Shown here: one piece after another, positions 7,277 through 52,511 of the stretch
Layout: the number at the start of each line of letters is the position of its first letter
How positions within the stretch are numbered: the stretch's first letter is position 1
Source: Escherichia phage vB_Eco_mar004NP2
Sequence record: NC_048205.1
Strand: one strand, 5' to 3'
Length of the DNA stretch: 64,000 bases
Program-made: the position numbers and the translations under genes
The notes under the pieces: generated by a model
The model's input: the letters and a program-made list of their open reading frames with translations, nothing else
Database searches by the model: none
Told to the model about the DNA's origin: nothing

Positions 7277-7461
7277 TGGAAACTCTTTTTCTTTTAATGC
7301 TCGTAGGTTCCTTGCTAGTTATATTAGCACTTCTACTGATCTGCAATATTCTTAATAATAAGAATCTAGAGCTAAAGTGTGAGAACCAAATCCTTAACCG
7401 TGAACTTAAACAATATAATCTAGCAGCCCATAAACTGTTAGACAAACTGGAGAATAAATAA
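7276..7461 (+). CDS. small membrane protein with coiled coil (61 aa)
   Basis: TM helix LFLLMLVGSLLVILALLLI plus helical tail; coupled start. Confidence 0.5.
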   Translation: METLFLLMLVGSLLVILALLLICNILNNKNLELKCENQILNRELKQYNLAAHKLLDKLENK

Positions 7462-8063
7462 TGTTTACACAACAACCTATTCAAGTAGTACCAGACCATG
7501 AACTGAACACATGGGATTATAGCCTTAAAGATTTAACTGCTACTGTACAATTCAAATCTATGAAGCTAACATTTGCACACACTGACCTTAGAGCCTGTAA
7601 AGATCTTGAAGGTAAGCTCGAAGATGCTCGTAGGATTTTTGGCACGGCTCGCATCCCGGCTGATAACCTGATTAATGCACTAATCGATGCGGGATACAAA
7701 CTCGTGAAGACTGAGGTGAACCGCCCCAATACTCCAGTGACTATTAGAGACCCGTGGCAGTCAGGGCCAAATACAATGTGGAACAGCCCTAAAATAACGT
7801 CGGATTTGCACAATGTTCCTTGTGGGGGTGTGGTAAGTAGTACGAAGTCATATAAGTTTGGTGAAGATTATGGGCCTTCTGTACAGTTAAAGCATACCCA
7901 AGAAGCTCTTGAATCTGACATGAAAAGCGTAGCGCCTGCGGATACTGAAGGTTTTAGAAGTCCCATCTATGTTACTCACTTTAATAATCTTAGACCTGGG
8001 AGTATAAATGATACTATCCTTGAGGCGTTGGGAGCTGCTCTTAATGAGAGTAAAAAGGATTAA
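7461..8063 (+). CDS. hypothetical protein (200 aa)
   Basis: ORF, ATGA-type coupling. Confidence 0.55.
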   Translation: MFTQQPIQVVPDHELNTWDYSLKDLTATVQFKSMKLTFAHTDLRACKDLEGKLEDARRIFGTARIPADNLINALIDAGYKLVKTEVNRPNTPVTIRDPWQSGPNTMWNSPKITSDLHNVPCGGVVSSTKSYKFGEDYGPSVQLKHTQEALESDMKSVAPADTEGFRSPIYVTHFNNLRPGSINDTILEALGAALNESKKD

Positions 8064-8143: not shown

Positions 8144-9028
8144 ATGTATAACTTTAAAGATAAACTAAGACAAAATGCTGGTAAAACAAAACCTAAAGAG
8201 AATAATAATGTTCCTAATGCCAAAGTATTACCATTTCCAGAACTGTCTCAAGAAGAAAAAGATAAGTTAGCATTTATGTTTGATGCTCTTCTAGGGCTAA
8301 GTGGACGTTTATATTCCTCACTCAATATTAATGAGAAACGTCTAGTAGAGATGTTCTGTAAACGTTACCAAGTTACTTCAAAGGGCAATTCTTATAAAGA
8401 AGGTGAAAAAGCATTTACAGTCTTAAAGATTAGCGCATATGCACATCGTTTCTTAGTTTATGGATTGCAAATGGAATACTTCACCATCCCATCATTTAGC
8501 TCTTTCCATATCTTTGAAGATGAACGAATGAATATTGATGATCTCTATGGGGATACGTACAAATACTCAGGAAGTCCATTCCACGATGCATTAAGGAGCT
8601 ACCCTACTAGTTACTTACCAGTTAGGGCATCTCAAGGTAAAGCTAGCGTTTTTGCTGTTTACTCAGGATCTAAAGCATCGGATCTAGAAACTTATATATT
8701 TAAAGAGCGTAAATCTGTACTTCCAGATGAAGCATTGTATAGCAATCCATTGCTTCCAGAAAAAGAACCAGAGAAAATTGATGTAACCCCACCAATCCCA
8801 TCTGATTCTCAATATTTAATTTATGAGAAACAAGTTAAGTTATCCCTAGAAATTGGGTTAGTTACACCGCTTGCTGCAGCGTTCATAAATAGATACCTAG
8901 AAATCCCAGATGAGTTCCACCAACGTTATAATACGAATATTCAGATAACGGATGAATTAATTGCGTTAGCAAAAGATACACCTACTGACACTGAGGCGTA
9001 TCAAAAAGCATACCAAGAGTTATTATAA
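8144..9028 (+). CDS. hypothetical protein (294 aa)
   Basis: ORF with RBS GGGAGA. Confidence 0.6.
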   Translation: MYNFKDKLRQNAGKTKPKENNNVPNAKVLPFPELSQEEKDKLAFMFDALLGLSGRLYSSLNINEKRLVEMFCKRYQVTSKGNSYKEGEKAFTVLKISAYAHRFLVYGLQMEYFTIPSFSSFHIFEDERMNIDDLYGDTYKYSGSPFHDALRSYPTSYLPVRASQGKASVFAVYSGSKASDLETYIFKERKSVLPDEALYSNPLLPEKEPEKIDVTPPIPSDSQYLIYEKQVKLSLEIGLVTPLAAAFINRYLEIPDEFHQRYNTNIQITDELIALAKDTPTDTEAYQKAYQELL

Positions 9029-9561
9029 TATTCTGCATGTCTCGGTGCACAATACCTGTACCGAGACTCAAATACAAACTCTCGTTGACAGATAGCTAAA
9101 TGTATGTTATCATAACTCTATGAGTTAATAGAATTAACCATTTAGAGTTGCCACACAGAAGGTGTGGTGGTTCAGTAATTTAAAATTACTAACTTGTAGC
9201 GGAGGATACGGAGCGACAGGACAAGTTAATAAGTAATTTAATATAAATTGCTAGAAACATCACGAGACCTTCTGGCGGGGGCAAAGCTCTATATGAGAAC
9301 CCTGGGGGATCTTATATTTAAAATAAAAGTAAAACTTTTGACCATATAATTTACATTCAAGATGATACACCTGTTGCCGCTCATCTGCTAGGATGGCACA
9401 ACACTTTCTTCTAGACTCCTAAGTTTCTAGGAAAACTCTTACACTCTAGGGCAGTTTCTCTCCAACGTTACATATCCTAGGCCGGTTTAATACAGGGCGG
9501 TTATTGGGAGGGCGGTTATTTCTAGAAGACATTTTTCCAAAACACATTTCCAGAAATTACT

Positions 9562-10163
9562 GTCGGATTCGCACATTGTGTTTCTAGAAATTTATGGTCG
9601 GATTTGCACAATTGCCTAAGTTTTCATGGACACATAATCTCCTGAAAATGGCAGCATTATTTCGGGCCGAAGGCCCATGATTGCCTGAGTTTTTAGAGCC
9701 ACAAGAATTTTCACTTGTCAAGCTATTTTGCCACCTTTAGCAAATAAAATTTTACTTTATCTCCACTAATCTCAAATTAACCCAAATCTTCTCAACTCTT
9801 CCCCCAAAAACGCAGCAAATCAGGCGTTGCACGCCACCCATGCTGCTCCTCCAGTTTCTCCACTTATTTTCTCTCGCTCTCTCATCTTCTCCTCAAACCT
9901 ATACAATCACACACCCTCCAATCGAAGTCACAAAAATCTTGTCGGATTCGCACATCTTAATCCTAGAAAAACCGTGTCGGATTTGCACATATCCCACAGG
10001 ATTCGAACGCAGTTCGAGATTGCTGGAGTTTTTGGGAAAATTCATTGTCGGATTTGCACACTATAAAAATTTTTGGGGTCGGATTTGCACACTACCAAAA
10101 ATTGTCGGATTCGCACATACACGCCCGCGCGTAATCCATGGTGGCAAATGTCGGATTTGCACA
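9562..10163 (+). repeat. array of 8 direct 14-bp iterons GTCGGATT(C/T)GCACA
   Basis: copies at 9562, 9597, 9941, 9976, 10047, 10078, 10104, 10150, all same orientation, irregular spacing. Confidence 0.85.
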
Positions 10164-10189
10164 AAAGCGCAGGGCAATTGCCCTGCGCT
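10164..10189 (-). terminator. perfect GC-rich palindrome; likely terminator for the minus-strand cassette
   Basis: AGCGCAGGGCAATTGCCCTGCGCT, 11-bp stem; on minus strand followed by TTTTGTG. Confidence 0.45.
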
Positions 10190-10190
10190 A

Positions 10191-10400
10191 AATACGAATG
10201 ATAATGAGAATCATTCGTATTTAAAAAGCGGAATAAGAATGATAATAGTTCTCATTTAGAAAGTGAAATGAGAATCAATCTCATTTAAGAAAGGGAATGA
10301 GAACTATTCAAAAAATGAAATGATTCTCATTTAAAAAATGGAATGATTATCGGTTAGATAGTGAAATGCGAATGATAATGATTCTCATTTAAGAATGGAA
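10191..10400. repeat. cluster of short palindromes AATGAGA-N-TCTCATT (hairpin/operator-like)
   Basis: at least 5 palindromic units read directly; extra copies at 10727-10747 and 19721-19738. Confidence 0.75.
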
Positions 10401-10420
10401 GCGAGAAACACTATTATTTA

Positions 10421-10530
10421 AGTTACCCACAGACTTATTAACAGCACGATTTGATTTGACAGAATCCTAGCCATTTTGAGGCGTTATCAACAGACTTATC
10501 CACAGCTTATCCTACTGTATAAATATACAG
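10421..10530. repeat. left arm of ~110-bp inverted repeat with DnaA-box-like sites and 16-bp palindrome
   Basis: reverse complement of 14001-14110 aligns with identical blocks AGTTAYCCACA..TTATTAACAGCAC and ACTTATCCACAG..TTATCCTACTGTATAAATATACAG. Confidence 0.8.
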
Positions 10531-10788
10531 TATTCCTACGCAGTGAATAATTCTAATATAGCGTTAAAACGTCCTAAATCGCATTCTAACGCGCTTAATT
10601 TTGATGGGGATACTAAAACAAGGGCAAAATTGGAGGAGGCTTAAAAATTAGTTAGCTTGCTAACGATCACACAAGGCGACACGTAACACCCTAATCATTA
10701 GCAGGCTAACCATCACGGGCGCGGTTAAATGAGAATCACTCTCATTTGAGAATTGGGGGCACTCCCTGGTAGTTGCGCCCCGTTATTA

Positions 10789-10983
10789 TTAGTCTGGTAG
10801 TCGATGCGTGATCTTTTCCTCCTCCCCGTAGGAATCCACCAAATGCTGATAATAACCATCGTGATCATAAATCACTTTATCATACTCGCCACGCTCGACC
10901 GCTTGTCGGTTTTCCGGCGTATCGGGCACGTAAAAAACATCAACCATTGTACTGATTTTGGTTACAACAATTTTATTGCTCAT
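10789..10983 (-). CDS. hypothetical protein (start trimmed to MSNKIVV)
   Basis: ORF; RBS AGGGG before internal ATG. Confidence 0.45.
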   Translation of the reverse strand: MSNKIVVTKISTMVDVFYVPDTPENRQAVERGEYDKVIYDHDGYYQHLVDSYGEEEKITHRLPD

Positions 10984-11845: not shown

Positions 11846-12109
11846 TTACATTAAAACAATTTTTGCAGCTTGTTTTTTGGTGCAATGTTCCGCCTTCAGG
11901 GTATCCAGCAAAAAGCCAGCCGTTTGCTGATCGATTTTATCGGCGTTATATAGTTCCTGAATGGTATTATAGGTTTTAGCAATACCGAACTCCTGCACCA
12001 TTTCATAGATGACAGCACGATTAGATACCCAGCCTTGCGCGGTAAACAGATGACTAGCAGAAGAATAAGCAACCATTTTAAGCCTCCAAATTTTTGGGAA
12101 AATTTTCAA
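11846..12109 (-). CDS. hypothetical protein (87 aa)
   Basis: ORF. Confidence 0.5.
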   Translation of the reverse strand: MKIFPKIWRLKMVAYSSASHLFTAQGWVSNRAVIYEMVQEFGIAKTYNTIQELYNADKIDQQTAGFLLDTLKAEHCTKKQAAKIVLM

Positions 12110-14000: not shown

Positions 14001-14110
14001 CCTGTATATTTATACAGTAGGATAACATGTGGATAAGTCTGTGGATAAGTCCTTATATCGTCGCCTATCGTGTCAAATCATTTTGTGCTGTTAATAAACT
14101 TGTGGATAAC
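14001..14110. repeat. right arm of ~110-bp inverted repeat with DnaA boxes
   Basis: TGTGGATAA at 14027-14035, 14039-14047, 14100-14108; palindrome CTGTATATTTATACAG 14001-14016. Confidence 0.8.
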
Positions 14111-15663: not shown

Positions 15664-16071
15664 ATGACTAACGTTAAAACCGCAAAATTTGCTTGGAATG
15701 AAGAAAACACTCAAAAAGCTGTTTCTATGTACCAGCAGTTAATTAATGAAAACGGTTTAGATTTCGCAAATAGCGACGGTTTAAAAGAGATTGCAAAAGC
15801 AGTGGGCGCGTCTTCTCCCGTGTCTGTTCGCTCAAAATTGACCAGCGCAAAAGCGTATCAGAAAAGCGATAAGCCTCGCAAAGTTGGCGGCGGTAGCTCA
15901 ATCCGCAAAGCTCACTATGTACGCGTTATCGCTAAACATGCTATTGATTCCGGCATTATTAAAGACGCCGACGATCTGGCAAGTCTGGAAAGTGCAAAAC
16001 TTGAAACGCTGGACGCCGTAGCGCAACTGTTAGGCGTTGCCGATGAAGTAAAACAGGCCGCAGGTGAATAA
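15664..16071 (+). CDS. hypothetical pre-early protein (135 aa)
   Basis: ORF with conserved upstream box. Confidence 0.6.
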   Translation: MTNVKTAKFAWNEENTQKAVSMYQQLINENGLDFANSDGLKEIAKAVGASSPVSVRSKLTSAKAYQKSDKPRKVGGGSSIRKAHYVRVIAKHAIDSGIIKDADDLASLESAKLETLDAVAQLLGVADEVKQAAGE

Positions 16072-16422: not shown

Positions 16423-18087
16423 ATGATTATTTCCGCAGAAAAACAAACCGTTATCCTGAAAATGGCCGCTGACTTTAATTTCTATGGTAAACGTCTGCGC
16501 GCTACTAAACTGGAGGTCTGCGACGATATATCAAAAGCGGTCTACGATACAACAAAACACTCGACCGCTATCTGCGACTGGTTGGAAGCAAATAAACCAG
16601 CTAAACCGAAAGCGGCGAAAGTAGCAAAAGCCATTAAAAACGATGAGCGTCCAGAAGCGGCGGGGATTGTTTCTAGCACGGTTGAGCAATGGGAAGTAAA
16701 GCAGGGTAAACGCTTTATTATTACGTCGATTCAGAATAATACTTTCCCGCATAAAAACTTTTTAGCCTCATTGGAGCAATTTGCTAAATATATCGGCGCT
16801 GATTTGCTGGTTAGCAAGTTTATTTATAACAAAAACGGTTTTCAAAATGGCGAGGGTGCAGAAGGAATAAAATATGATTCCGCATTTGACAAATATATCT
16901 GCAATAAAAACGTGTTTTTAAATAACCGCCGTTTTGCTTTCATGGCTGAAATTAACGTTTTGCCAACCGCAGATTATCCGCTTTCTGGATTCGCTGAAAC
17001 TGCAACGGCGCTTAATCTGGAAGGTCTGGCAATTGGTCACGCTAAAATTACCGCTGAAAGCGTGCCAGCTTTAAAAGGTGAAGTAGTGCGCCGTATGTAC
17101 TCAACCGGAACGGCAACGCTCAAAAACTACATTCAGCAGAAAGCAGGACAAAAGGCCGAGGCGCTGCATAACTTCGGTGCGCTAATTGTCGAGTTCGACG
17201 AGGACGGGGAATTTTTTGTACGCCAGCTCGAAACGATGGACGAAAGCGGGGTATTTTATGATCTGAATGTGTGCGCTACTCCTGCCGGATGCTATGAGAC
17301 ATCGGGGCATGTTTTAGGCTTGCAATACGGCGATATTCACGCAGAAAAACTAGATGATGATTGTGCCGTTGCGTCATGGGCTGGCGAAAATAGCTTGCTT
17401 GATATTCTCAAGCCTAAATATCAGTTTATCCATGACGTGCATGATTTTACATCACGCAACCATCACAACCGCGCATCCGGTGTATTCCTAGCAAAACAAT
17501 ACGCCGCCGGACGTGATAAGGTATTAGATGATCTTATCGATACGGGGCGCGTGCTGGAATCAATGGAACGTGATTTCTCGCAAACAATCATTGTTGAATC
17601 TAATCACGATTTGGCGCTATCCCGTTGGCTTGATGATCGTAATGCTAACATTAAAGACGATCCAGCAAACGCGGAACTATATCACCGCCTAAATGCCGCG
17701 ATTTATGGAGCTATTGCAGAAAAAGACGATACTTTCAACGTGCTAGATTATGCGCTGCGCAAGGTTGCAGGTTGTGAGTTTAACGCCATTTTTCTAACTA
17801 CTGACCAATCTTTCAAGATTGCAGGCATTGAATGCGGCGTACACGGTCACAACGGCATTAACGGCAGCCGTGGCAATCCTAAACAATTTAAGAAATTGGG
17901 CAAATTAAACACCGGACACACTCACACCGCCAGCATTTATGGCGGCGTGTATACCGCTGGCGTAGCTGGTAGTCTGGACATGGGTTACAACGTTGGCGCG
18001 TCAAGCTGGACGCAAACGCATTTAATTACCTATGCAAACGGTCAGCGCACTTTGATTGACTTTAAAAACGGTAAATTCTTTGCGTAA
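16423..18087 (+). CDS. A1: A1-like pre-early protein (554 aa)
   Basis: size and position next to dmp-like gene as in T5 pre-early region; GDIH and GHNG motifs compatible with phosphoesterase-like fold (recalled, not searched). Confidence 0.6.
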   Translation: MIISAEKQTVILKMAADFNFYGKRLRATKLEVCDDISKAVYDTTKHSTAICDWLEANKPAKPKAAKVAKAIKNDERPEAAGIVSSTVEQWEVKQGKRFIITSIQNNTFPHKNFLASLEQFAKYIGADLLVSKFIYNKNGFQNGEGAEGIKYDSAFDKYICNKNVFLNNRRFAFMAEINVLPTADYPLSGFAETATALNLEGLAIGHAKITAESVPALKGEVVRRMYSTGTATLKNYIQQKAGQKAEALHNFGALIVEFDEDGEFFVRQLETMDESGVFYDLNVCATPAGCYETSGHVLGLQYGDIHAEKLDDDCAVASWAGENSLLDILKPKYQFIHDVHDFTSRNHHNRASGVFLAKQYAAGRDKVLDDLIDTGRVLESMERDFSQTIIVESNHDLALSRWLDDRNANIKDDPANAELYHRLNAAIYGAIAEKDDTFNVLDYALRKVAGCEFNAIFLTTDQSFKIAGIECGVHGHNGINGSRGNPKQFKKLGKLNTGHTHTASIYGGVYTAGVAGSLDMGYNVGASSWTQTHLITYANGQRTLIDFKNGKFFA

Positions 18088-18911: not shown

Positions 18912-19646
18912 ATGAATAAAGCTATCATGAATCTTTCCCGCAGCTTCCCGCATATTTCCCGCGTCATGATTTGGGATTTAGACGGCACTATCATTAATTC
19001 TTTCCATCGTGTAGCACCCTGCTTTGATAGCGAGGGCAATTTAGATTTAAATAAGTATAAAAATGAAGCGTGTAAACACCATTTAATAATGCAAGATACT
19101 TTATTGCCATTGGTTGAATATATGCGCCAGTGCATGAATGACGCAAATACTTTAAACATTATTTGCACCGCTCGACTGATGAGTAAGTCGGACTATTATT
19201 TCTTGCGTAAACAAGGGTTGCGCGGTCGTGGTAATAGTAATATCCGCGTATTTTCCCGCGATACACTACACAAATATTTTAAAGCTGATAAGGTTAGCGA
19301 AATATACCACAGCAAAGACGCAGTATATAAATCTTATTATTTTGAATTATTTAAACAGTTATATCCTAACGCTGATTTTACAATGATTGATGATCATAAA
19401 GGCGTGCTATCAGCGGCAGCGTCATACGGATTTAAAACGCTGGACGCACAAGCCGTTAATGATATTCTATCAATCGGCGTGGCATTGATAGGTGAAACCT
19501 TTATTGATGAATCTCTCGACGATGATAATGATTATCAATTCCTAGCTGACCGTTTAAAATTATGCTGGGAAGGTATGACCGAGGAAGAACGCGCAGAATA
19601 TAGTTGCAGTCCTCAACAATATATTGAGAAATTAAAAGTTGCCTAA
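18912..19646 (+). CDS. dmp: HAD-family 5'-deoxyribonucleotidase (dmp-like)
   Basis: N-terminal HAD motif I MIWDLDGTI; 244 aa. Confidence 0.7.
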   Translation: MNKAIMNLSRSFPHISRVMIWDLDGTIINSFHRVAPCFDSEGNLDLNKYKNEACKHHLIMQDTLLPLVEYMRQCMNDANTLNIICTARLMSKSDYYFLRKQGLRGRGNSNIRVFSRDTLHKYFKADKVSEIYHSKDAVYKSYYFELFKQLYPNADFTMIDDHKGVLSAAASYGFKTLDAQAVNDILSIGVALIGETFIDESLDDDNDYQFLADRLKLCWEGMTEEERAEYSCSPQQYIEKLKVA

Positions 19647-19798
19647 CAATTAAAGTTGAAATAGTCACGGTGTGTAATGATACCATGCCGTGACTATTAG
19701 CCTGCTAAGTACCGGGCGGTAATGAGACTCATTCTCATCTGGGGGGCCACTGGACACACCCACGCGTACGTAATCCAAAGAAATTGGCAAAAGTCAAA

Positions 19799-20044
19799 TT
19801 AGCGCATAGAAGGGTCATCAAACCTGTATTCTGGTCTGAACTCACGGAATCTCTTCCGCGACGCCCGAGATCCATCCGACCACTCCCGCTCAAACTCCGC
19901 ACGTTTCTCGTCAAACTTCCGCTCCCTTTCCGCAATCTCCCGCGTCACTCCCGCAATATATTTACGATGCTTATTGATTGCCGCAGTCGTCCCGAAAACT
20001 CCCGTGAGTATCCCGATAATAAAAGCAATTACAATACTAAACAT
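19799..20044 (-). CDS. small membrane protein with charged helical tail (81 aa)
   Basis: TM helix FSIVIAFIIGILTGVFGTTAA; 8-nt overlap with upstream ORF. Confidence 0.5.
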   Translation of the reverse strand: MFSIVIAFIIGILTGVFGTTAAINKHRKYIAGVTREIAERERKFDEKRAEFEREWSDGSRASRKRFREFRPEYRFDDPSMR

Positions 20045-24827: not shown

Positions 24828-25394
24828 ATGCCAGAGAGCACATGTTTGGGAAGCAACACACATTCTATACTCCATATGGGGAGAGGTTGTCCACACTGCT
24901 CCAATAATACAATATCGTTAGATGAAGTTAATAACAGAATATCTAATATAGGGTATACTCTGTTAAGCAGCTATACTAATGCTAAAACAAAACTACATCT
25001 ACGCTGCAATAAGGGGCATGACTGTTTACTTACCTTAGATGGATTGACTCAAGGTAAGAGATGTCCTTATTGTTCTCTTAAGTGGGAGAATGGCGGATTC
25101 CTCTATATCATGTCCTCCTCTAGTGGTACTAAAGTAGGCATAAGCTTATACCCTGAGAAACGGCTGAATGAAGTTAAAAGAGAATCTGGATTTTCTGACC
25201 TATACTTGTTCACCATGTATCATCTGCCAGATAGAGAGACTGCTTTAGATTTAGAAAAGGAAGTTCACAGAGAATATTATAATAAAAACTGTGGGTTTTC
25301 TAATTTTACAGGAAGCACGGAATTTTTTAATGTTGCTCCTGAGGATATAGTAATCTTTCTAAGTAGCTTTGGATTGGAGGATTATGGCCACTAA
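24828..25394 (+). CDS. homing-endonuclease-like protein (zinc ribbon plus GIY-YIG-like/T5orf172-type region)
   Basis: CPHCS..CPYCS zinc motifs; GFLYIMSSSSGTKVGIS resembles GIY-YIG-like core; upstream 24721-24921 fragment in another frame has the same motif. Confidence 0.5.
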   Translation: MPESTCLGSNTHSILHMGRGCPHCSNNTISLDEVNNRISNIGYTLLSSYTNAKTKLHLRCNKGHDCLLTLDGLTQGKRCPYCSLKWENGGFLYIMSSSSGTKVGISLYPEKRLNEVKRESGFSDLYLFTMYHLPDRETALDLEKEVHREYYNKNCGFSNFTGSTEFFNVAPEDIVIFLSSFGLEDYGH

Positions 25395-50672: not shown

Positions 50673-52511
50673 TTATTCTAAGTAGGAAAATCCTTCTGCA
50701 TCTTTTTTGACAGTAATCTTATGGGCCAATGGATGCGTATGCCCATGAGAAACAATGATAGAGTTTAGACTTTCTTCCTCATTTAATAATTCAACAAGGG
50801 TGTCAAGTCCTTTCGTATCAATAAAGCTAATTACTTCATCAAGGAATAGAAGATTAATATTAACTTTACTAATAGATGTTAGTAGCATTCGAATAGCTAA
50901 CAGAGTTGCTAGGTTGATTCGACTTTGCTGACCAGTAGAGCAGTTCTCCATACTGGTACGGTTTCCATCATTGAAGATTACTACTTGTAATTTTGTTTCA
51001 TCAAGTTCAAATCCAAGTGCGAACTTACCACCAGTCATAATGGAAAGGTATTTATTAATTAGTTCTTCAAATACTTTCACACTATGCTCTAGCTTATACC
51101 CTACCAGATTTTTCAATGCGGCGATCAGAATATCGAGATCAGCAACAGCTTCTGATACTTCATCCAGTTTGGAAGTAATCTCAGACATTTCTGCCTCAGC
51201 TTTCTCAATCTGTTCTAGTTTCGCTTTATATTTTGCATTGGCTAATTCAACATTTGCATTATGCTCTTTGGCAATTGCAACCTTAGAACGTCCATCAGCA
51301 ATTTCCTGTTCTAATTGTCGTATTTGCACCTGTAGGTTTTGCACATTGAGTTCTTCAAAAGAAGCATCACTCATTGAATTTTTGAACTCGTCTCTAGCTG
51401 CTACTGCTTTATCCAAAGCATCCTTTGCTCTAATATACGTAGTGTACTCAAGTTGTTCTTTCTTCAGCTGTTCTAGCTTGGTTTCAAGAGATTGCTTCTC
51501 TTTGAACAGAGGATCATATTCTGTTCTAGCCATATCCATTGCTTTTTGAGCAGCAGTTGTATCCAGGTGAGTACCACAAGTAGGACATTCAGTATTTGAA
51601 GCCTCTTGCTTGAACTTCTGATAACGTTTCTTGACTTCGCCCGCACGTGAGGTCACAATCGTTAGGTCACGCGTAACACTCGAGATCTCTTCATTTTGGT
51701 CGGTGGGCGCAGGCAAATTTTTGAAAGGCTCGAAAGATTGTTCGGCAACTTGTACAGCTTTGTCCAAATTACGCAATTTAGTAATATTAGCCTCTTGAGA
51801 CTTGGCTAATGCCGCCTTAATTTTCGATTCTGTAAGTTCTTGTGCTAATGGTTCTTCATCAAATTCTGGTACTTCGACTGGTTCTTGTAAGGTTCCCAAG
51901 TTATTCTTTCCATTAAGGATTTTTGTAATTACAGCCATTTGGCCCTGCAAATTATTTAAGGTATTTGCTATTTCTTTACGGTCAGCCTTAATAGTTTCTG
52001 ACATTTCTTTATACTGTTCTTGATTGAACAAGTTAACAAGAAAAGCCTTACGTGTTGCATCTGTTGCTTTGAGGAAGTCTAGATTGGAACCAACAGATTG
52101 ATAGATTAGTTTAGTGAATGTTTGGAAGTCACCACCCATAATCTCTTCAATCATCTTGTACGTTTGAGTTGCTGTGTGTCCACTGATATCTTCTCCATTC
52201 TTAATCAGTGTAACCTTAGCAGTTGATTTAACTACTTTATGCAATTCATACTCATCTTCATCTTTCGAGAAGTAAGCATGCATATCATACTCTTTCTTCG
52301 GAGAACCCCAAGAGAATAGGGCGTCCTTCTTGATACCACGTGAGTTCTTGTTATAAAACAATTCCTCAATAACAGTAGCAATAGTGGACTTCCCTAGACC
52401 GTTTCCTCCGATTAACTGAGTAACTGGATTCTTATCGAAATGAATTACGATGTCCCTACCGTAAGACATAACGTTACTAAATTTTAGTGTCTTAATTGTA
52501 ATCTTTGACAT
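50673..52511 (-). CDS. SbcC/Rad50-like ATPase
   Basis: Walker A GGNGLGKST, long coiled-coil middle, C-terminal D-loop LFLDEV; start trimmed to MSKITIKTLKF. Confidence 0.8.
   Translation of the reverse strand: MSKITIKTLKFSNVMSYGRDIVIHFDKNPVTQLIGGNGLGKSTIATVIEELFYNKNSRGIKKDALFSWGSPKKEYDMHAYFSKDEDEYELHKVVKSTAKVTLIKNGEDISGHTATQTYKMIEEIMGGDFQTFTKLIYQSVGSNLDFLKATDATRKAFLVNLFNQEQYKEMSETIKADRKEIANTLNNLQGQMAVITKILNGKNNLGTLQEPVEVPEFDEEPLAQELTESKIKAALAKSQEANITKLRNLDKAVQVAEQSFEPFKNLPAPTDQNEEISSVTRDLTIVTSRAGEVKKRYQKFKQEASNTECPTCGTHLDTTAAQKAMDMARTEYDPLFKEKQSLETKLEQLKKEQLEYTTYIRAKDALDKAVAARDEFKNSMSDASFEELNVQNLQVQIRQLEQEIADGRSKVAIAKEHNANVELANAKYKAKLEQIEKAEAEMSEITSKLDEVSEAVADLDILIAALKNLVGYKLEHSVKVFEELINKYLSIMTGGKFALGFELDETKLQVVIFNDGNRTSMENCSTGQQSRINLATLLAIRMLLTSISKVNINLLFLDEVISFIDTKGLDTLVELLNEEESLNSIIVSHGHTHPLAHKITVKKDAEGFSYLE

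Follow-up and report, generated by a model that had tools for sequence, protein, structure and literature searches.

The array of eight same-strand 14-bp repeats at positions 9562 to 10163 of the window (the whole 64-kb stretch of Escherichia phage DNA that was analysed, 64,000 nucleotides) is the repeat family that has been catalogued as "direct repeat D" (DRD) in the region of phage T5 that holds the injection stop signal and the end of the terminal repeat. The array is thereby already known and is not a new element, and it was confirmed to be real and local. Its split into two and six copies straddles the predicted physical end of the terminal repeat, and its bipartite, oriented motif, confined to a single locus and conserved far beyond its surroundings, has the look of a protein-binding site. 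Tentatively, the array is read here as a cis-acting part of the injection stop signal (iss) module, through which second-step transfer would be controlled and/or the genome end formed, and in which the repeats may serve as sites for one conserved DNA-binding protein, most likely A2, that would convert the first-step stall into second-step transfer. The stop and restart of DNA transfer in T5 are still poorly understood; in two papers from 2026, the iss is still equated with a repeat-rich non-coding region and second-step transfer is likewise described as poorly understood. To this picture, the present study adds a core motif that is found family-wide, its fixed position between the genome end and nick 1, and three candidate binders (A2, SciB, and DnaA), and such comparative anatomy narrows the experiments on the DRD binder to a short list.

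The array is T5 direct repeat D

An exact search of the window for GTCGGATTYGCACA returned all eight same-orientation iterons that the initial annotation had described, each on the + strand, together with a ninth + strand copy at 7799 that had been overlooked (Table 1), and no copies on the minus strand. Dinucleotide-preserving shuffles (n = 100) gave 0.00 matches to the same pattern. When two mismatches were tolerated, the sole addition in the window was an adjacent pair at 51317/51332, and in the complete genome of Kenya-K33 (106,672 bp) the motif was found only at the homologous 8+1 sites and at the same degenerate pair; the motif is thus not present at similar density genome-wide, which agrees with the local array that had been proposed. 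The degenerate pair (51317-51345) is located on the window + strand within a 637-aa minus-strand ORF, carries two mismatches per 14-mer in the window and one in Kenya-K33, and is probably due to chance.

The start-to-start distances of the eight copies are 35, 344, 35, 71, 31, 26, and 46 bp. A segment of 72 nt with two motifs 35 bp apart occurs twice, at 9554-9625 and at 9933-10004. By our own calculation, the two-sided probability that all nine copies fall on the same strand is ~0.004. The tract is non-coding and lies between early and pre-early genes, as first described, the flanking gene sets being convergent: the early ORFs of the + strand stop at 9028, and the minus-strand ORFs of the pre-early side begin at ~10789. 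The isolated copy at 7799 lies 1.7 kb further along the entering DNA, on the same strand as the array; it encodes S-D-L-H and is conserved in T5 and many relatives.

The T5-like character of the genome, likewise recognised at the outset, is borne out by 454 T5-like phage records that match the region, mostly from Salmonella and Escherichia phages. Among the records that start at the left end, most match on the minus strand, so that the window represents the T5 map in reverse. Downstream, the pre-early gene A2 and the genes A1 and dmp are followed by the left end of the terminal repeat at ~19756, and then by the genes for the receptor-binding protein, the small and large terminase subunits, and the portal protein. 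Situated between the portal gene and that of the large terminase subunit, an ORF at 24828-25394 has endonuclease PHROG matches, including HNH and homing endonucleases, and is probably a mobile insertion. The ORFs nearest to the array (7461-8063 and 8144-9028) match only PHROGs of unknown function.

In the T5 record AY587007, DRD copies 1-6 are annotated at 9672-9895, copies 7-8 at 10225-10274, copy 9 at 10397, and copy 10 at 12073, inside ORF019, and the GTCGGATTYGCACA pattern matches exactly nine annotated DRD features of this record, on the complementary strand. The neighbourhood agrees as well: the repeat end falls between copies 6 and 7 and nick 1 beside copy 1, and further along in the window follow, in the T5 order, the direct repeat C palindromes and then the DnaA boxes in inverted repeats D'/C'. 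A second T5 record, AY543070, annotates the iss at 9140-10149. By homology, this interval covers the six-copy cluster, which places the array in the injection-stop region where the initial annotation had expected it, at ~7.9-8.3% of the genome and in non-coding DNA at the right end of the left terminal repeat. In T5, the shear point is estimated at ~9618, the nick is at 9661-9668, and DRD copy 1 starts at 9672. Davison 2020 (bioRxiv 10.1101/866236) distinguishes three major classes of repeats in Repeat Region 3, one of them being the "nine DRD repeats", and gives the repeats of this region no role.

Table 1. Repeat copies, neighbouring elements, and genes in the window, with their T5 counterparts where these are given.
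Feature	Position	Strand	Remarks
Isolated DRD copy in ORF 7461-8063 (T5 ORF019 homologue)	7799..7812	+	sense strand of the ORF; homologue of T5 direct repeat D copy 10
Sigma-70-type promoter-like site	9085..9113	+	TTGACA-17-TATCAT preceded by TG (extended -10); directly after last early gene
Two GGGCGGTTA motifs	9495..9518	+	third exact copy (GGGCGGTAA) at 19714-19722
DRD copy, C-type, outer cluster	9562..9575	+	outside terminal repeat; homologue of T5 DRD copy 8
DRD copy, T-type, outer cluster	9597..9610	+	homologue of T5 DRD copy 7; predicted genome end 86 bp away
GC hairpin GGGCC-GAA-GGCCC	9664..9676		~20 nt outside end; read directly from sequence
Predicted physical right genome end / terminal-repeat boundary	9690..9712		TTTTTA, then GAGCCACAAGAATTTTC after the cut between 9695 and 9696; repeat runs rightward to ~19756
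C-rich, G-poor tract, 220 nt	9720..9940	+	C/G up to 8; between genome end and inner cluster
DRD copy, first of inner cluster	9941..9954	+	homologue of T5 DRD copy 6; 245 bp inside terminal repeat
DRD copy, inner cluster	9976..9989	+	shares 72-nt unit with 9941 copy
DRD copy, inner cluster	10047..10060	+	exact search
DRD copy, inner cluster	10078..10091	+	exact search
DRD copy, inner cluster	10104..10117	+	exact search
DRD copy	10150..10163	+	homologue of T5 DRD copy 1; 3 nt upstream of GCGCAGGG nick-1 site
T5 major nick-1 signature	10131..10189	+	GTAATCC 10131-10137, spacer with 10150 DRD copy, GCGCAGGG 10167-10174
AT-rich palindromic AATGAGAATCATTC-type repeats	10190..10420		T5 direct repeat C / palindromes E-I
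DnaA and DnaA-like boxes, paired: TTACCCACA, TTATTAACA, TTATCAACA, TTATCCACA	10422..10510	+	DRD strand; T5 inverted repeats D'/C'
Pre-early gene A2 (DNA-binding protein)	15664-16071	+	
Gene A1	16423-18087		100% identical to Salmonella phage SPLA5b
dmp	18912-19646		
Terminase small subunit, 160 aa	22751..23233	+	upstream of large subunit; PHROG 'terminase small subunit'

Genome end, nick 1, and the conserved module

The left terminal repeat of T5 ends at 10139, and PhageTerm repeats amount to 9743 bp in BF23 and 10100 bp in KpGranit. These three phages have an end junction in common, in which TTTTTA before the cut is followed by GA(G/T)CCACA(A/G)(G/A)AATTT, and its equivalent in the window lies between 9695 and 9696. 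With the end predicted there, the two-copy cluster falls outside the terminal repeat, 86-134 bp beyond its end, and the six-copy cluster inside, in its last 245-470 bp. Seven of eight repeat-bearing IMG/VR assemblies end 243-245 bp past the sixth copy. A GC hairpin outside the end has a counterpart of other sequence (CACGGTG..CACCGTG) at the same place in KpGranit, which suggests that structure rather than sequence may be conserved here. The C-rich tract on the other side of the end looks like a site at which Rho could load onto a transcript started at the 9085 promoter, and Proteus and Vibrio phages have pyrimidine-rich tandem repeats at its position.

A gap of 3 nt separates the end of the inner cluster from the major nick-1 site, where first-step transfer gives way to the second step. 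The three major nick sites of T5 consist of GTAAT(C/A)(C/T), a spacer of ~28-29 nt, and GCGCAGGG, all on the DRD strand, which is the nicked strand; in the window, the nick is predicted directly before G10167, at a 24-nt palindrome (10166-10189). The GTAATCC element upstream of the nick is not within the 8-bp nick features of AY587007. DRD was also considered as part of the nick recognition site, and this was rejected because, among the three major sites, DRD is found in the spacer of nick 1 only. A nick-site-like pattern (GTAATCC, 25 nt, GCGCATAG) is present at 19770-19809, just beyond the left terminal-repeat boundary.

Past the nick, the AT-rich block consists of palindromic repeats and has DnaA boxes nearby, and the initial annotation was right to place such boxes close to the array (TTATCCACA at 10496, near-consensus boxes at 10423-10492). 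Three perfect TTATCCACA boxes on the minus strand at 14028-14109 seem to form an inverted counterpart to the pairs at 10422-10510, and would correspond to inverted repeats C/D in Repeat Region 2 of T5. At the opposite edge of the repeat block, and directed into it, is a near-consensus promoter-like site that is without annotation in the T5 records; it is kept in T5, KpGranit, Erwinia phage KEY, Proteus phage 1, and Vibrio phage D239, and its flanks are not conserved. The GGGCGGTAA copy of the next motif is located at 19714, ~35-40 bp from the other terminal-repeat boundary, and three of the four exact copies of GGGCGGTWA in the 64 kb lie near the two repeat boundaries; these three agree in strand and in the side of the cut on which they lie, making this motif a candidate for a signal common to both ends. 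A comparison of the two repeat boundaries for a shared cut-site sequence found nothing convincing.

A motif search in related phages, as had been suggested for the array, revealed that it is conserved family-wide with variable copy numbers. A scan of IMG/VR for two motif copies 15-45 bp apart yielded 38 stretches, all in 95-121 kb T5-like contigs and all with the same-strand 2+6 layout. In 16 relatives, a sample that is biased because it was selected by the motif, the block 9302-10800 is 90-100% conserved and the adjacent coding DNA ~40-60%. Outer and inner copies number 5+6 in Klebsiella K7_rec14, 4+6 in KpGranit, and 3+5 in Erwinia KEY. In the Klebsiella and Erwinia phages, the A1 of which is 66-73% identical to that of the window, the RTCGGA-WWY-GCACA core is kept and the spacers have diverged, with an end-to-nick identity to the window of 0.67-0.69 at DRD positions versus 0.34-0.38 elsewhere. 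In a logo of 55 sites from six phages, TCG and CA (14-mer positions 11-12) are invariant, the other GCACA bases are nearly so, and the central three bases are variable; T-A follows the core, and an A-rich stretch is found 5-9 nt upstream, giving a full core with flanks of T-RTCGGA-WWY-GCACA-TA with the A-rich stretch before it.

More distant relatives retain part of this arrangement. Vibrio T5-like phages (A1 30-35% identical) have six related copies at the same place, e.g., GTCGGATTTGCACC-CAG-GCGCAGG in Vibrio phage IW18, which is a DRD beside the nick motif; Vibrio phage D239 is without the outer cluster. Proteus phage 1 has one canonical DRD-like copy, beside its GCGCAGGG, and other iterons elsewhere. 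In the equivalent region of this Novosibvirus (L045 2970-3157, 3524-3640, 4136-4289), these iterons comprise ~10 CCATTCTATTAYTC units, three 46-bp repeats, and ~7 (C/A)TG(C/T)AAA units, the reverse complement of which resembles the DRD core. Vibrio phage 1.063.O was dropped as a comparison since its organisation is not T5-like. Across the family, the order of the module is promoter, GGGCGGTTA motifs, outer DRD (in some lineages only), GC hairpin, genome end, C/T-rich tract, inner DRD, nick motif, AT-rich palindromes, DnaA-box pairs, and, as the last element, a CTACTGTATA..TACAGTA palindrome.

Candidate readings of the array

From the comparisons above, we infer three main readings, ranked as follows: I) A2 and second-step transfer, II) the terminase, and III) DnaA. 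According to Davison 2020, second-step transfer depends on A2, a dimeric DNA-binding protein. In the first reading, the DRD sites would be the recognition elements of one sequence-specific protein, the DNA-reading surface of which would be conserved across Demerecviridae. The binder would be the pre-early, helix-turn-helix-like A2, together with A1; upon its arrival in the cytoplasm, A2 would load onto the DRD stretch, and this loading would turn the stalled first-step complex into second-step transfer. It is possible, and put forward with reserve, that the DRD array is the A2 operator set through which A1/A2 restart transfer, the protein-site pair being conserved from coliphages to vibriophages. 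Consistent with this, V55, R56, K58, and L59 of the central helix of A2 are invariant and S57 is kept in four of five sequences from coliphages to Proteus and Vibrio phages, and A2 occurs in this phage family only. A confident AlphaFold2 model of A2 is all-helical (pLDDT 84, pTM 0.47). A Foldseek search of this model against the PDB returned no significant match (best E = 0.5), so that a helix-turn-helix fold is only putative for A2; the weak top matches included TetR, TnpE, Myb, and homeodomain folds, and the A2 sequence profile had no match in the PDB.

Several observations count against A2. Proteus phage 1 retains the A2 helix yet has only one canonical DRD-like copy, and the DRD site is non-palindromic, whereas A2 is a dimer. 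The DRD sites of T5 lie just right of the estimated shear point and may hence still be outside the cell while transfer is paused. Chloramphenicol does not prevent formation of the first-step fragment, i.e., the first-step stop takes place without phage protein synthesis, so that A2 could explain the restart but not the stop. Lastly, the array always lies ~100-250 bp from the genome end and beside the nick, which would fit a terminase equally. The phyletic distribution is uninformative in choosing between A2 and the terminase small subunit (TerS), both being restricted to the same family.

Rather more doubtful is the reading of DRD as a platform for TerS ('SciB'), which in turn would place the large subunit for two reactions, the cutting of concatemers between 9695 and 9696, at the right end of the terminal repeat, and the nick at GCGCAGGG, in a manner akin to lambda cosB or the P1 pac hexamers. 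In T5, BF23, and KpGranit, the physical end falls between the two clusters (by PhageTerm for the latter two phages), the inner cluster keeps the above distance from the end in every lineage examined, the outer and inner clusters of the window lie 86 bp and 245 bp, respectively, from the predicted end, and the last DRD copy is 3 nt from a major nick. Moreover, the gene adjoining the large terminase belongs to the PHROG 'terminase small subunit' and is labelled 'putative SciB' in GenBank records (T5, Spc35), a label that ties the terminase to the nicking genes, which were identified as sciA and sciB (PMC3517423). However, a search of the window found no DRD near the other terminal-repeat boundary (~19756), and the motif that is near both boundaries is GGGCGGTWA and not DRD, which detracts from the terminase reading. 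Lineages that have a common DRD core differ in the helix-turn-helix region of TerS, the outer cluster is missing from Vibrio phage D239, and the other major nick sites are without DRD. The packaging direction, too, is uncertain, as a last-in-first-out inference stands against the left end being packed first (PMC3517423).

That DRD forms a low-affinity DnaA array is unlikely. Here, the nine bases at the 3' end of each DRD (ATTYGCACA) would act as cooperative sites for host DnaA, and the array would extend the high-affinity boxes at 10422-10510 and tether the entering DNA, as an extension of Davison's DnaA injection-stop model. The T-type copies match the consensus TT(A/T)TNCACA at 8/9 positions and the C-type copies at 7/9, a copy in Vibrio phage D239 (TTTTGCACA) is a perfect consensus match, and the DRD copies are oriented like all four DnaA and DnaA-like boxes. 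The conservation of the DnaA reading head across all hosts counts in the same direction. Nevertheless, the DnaA consensus is strictly matched by 0 DRD copies, TCGG, which lies outside the DnaA 9-mer, is invariant at ~2 bits in the 55 sites from six phages, and the variants of Klebsiella phages (GGAAATGCACA) break box positions 1-2. The DRD spacings range from 16 to 81 bp, unlike oriC arrays, which are regularly spaced. In addition, the DRD copies are not among the DnaA boxes listed by Davison 2020.

The initial annotation had suggested that the array could be the platform of a phage or host protein governing two-step transfer, and this idea is plausible. It had also proposed an origin or a partition-type site, and this part was not supported. 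Same-strand iterons occur here together with DnaA boxes, a palindromic AT-rich block, and a strong inward promoter, which makes the region superficially origin-like; an iteron-type replication origin or a centromere-like partition site is nevertheless very improbable, as the iteron spacing is irregular, without phasing, and different in other genera, no Rep or Par gene is evident beside the array (a comparison of the four flanking ORFs with Pfam gave no family), a need for partition is not evident in a lytic phage, and the T5 origins have been mapped near the genome centre (cited by Davison 2020).

A function at the RNA level, in which the 9085-9113 promoter would make a non-coding RNA with GUCGGAUUYGCACA repeats that bind a protein, e.g., as a CsrA-type GGA sponge, is likewise very improbable: all nine copies, including the intragenic one at 7799, are sense for + strand transcription, the promoter-like site is kept from T5 to Proteus and Vibrio phages, and the motif includes GGA, but the GGA is mostly paired in the predicted folds of four phages (mean unpaired ~0.1-0.35 versus a background of 0.41-0.49), the inner cluster is downstream of the 220-nt C-rich, G-poor tract of Rho-loading look, a bipartite core with an A-rich stretch before it is a typical feature of DNA sites, and Rfam gave no match above any family threshold, only sub-threshold ones. 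To our knowledge, the consensus sequences of CRP, PurR/GalR, TyrR, NtrC/sigma-54, and IHF show no convincing match to DRD.

Comparison with known systems

Among partition sites, parC of plasmid R1 consists of two clusters of direct iterons that are bound by ParR. The array is similar in having two clusters of short direct repeats and differs in that its four flanking ORFs are without a ParM/ParR- or ParA/ParB-type domain and in that it is part of a lytic phage genome. With the iteron origins of oriλ, P1, F, and R6K and with oriC, the array has in common direct repeats beside DnaA boxes and an AT-rich block, and the 3' half of DRD resembles a DnaA box; however, the DRD copies are irregular in spacing, have no evident adjacent initiator gene, are longer than a DnaA box, and contain an invariant TCGG half.

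Terminase recognition arrays beside the cut are exemplified by the R sites of lambda cosB and by the P1 pac hexamers, which flank the cut. The likeness here is that several short repeats are found no more than a few hundred bp away from the genome end and, in this lineage, on either side of the cut. In contrast to these systems, none are found at the other end, the copies are all direct, binding by the terminase is only putative, and the TerS helix-turn-helix does not follow the conservation of the motif.

The closest comparison is with DRD of T5 itself. The differences are confined to the degenerate T5 copy 9 (ATCGGATTTGCACA at 10397), which is absent from the window, and to two spacings of inner copies, which are 35/71 in the window versus 25/81 in T5. 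Otherwise, both phages have the same 14-mer (reverse-complemented with respect to the T5 map strand), all on the same strand, arranged in the same order with respect to the repeat end, nick 1, the palindromes of direct repeat C, and the DnaA boxes, and with an extra copy in the ORF019 homologue.
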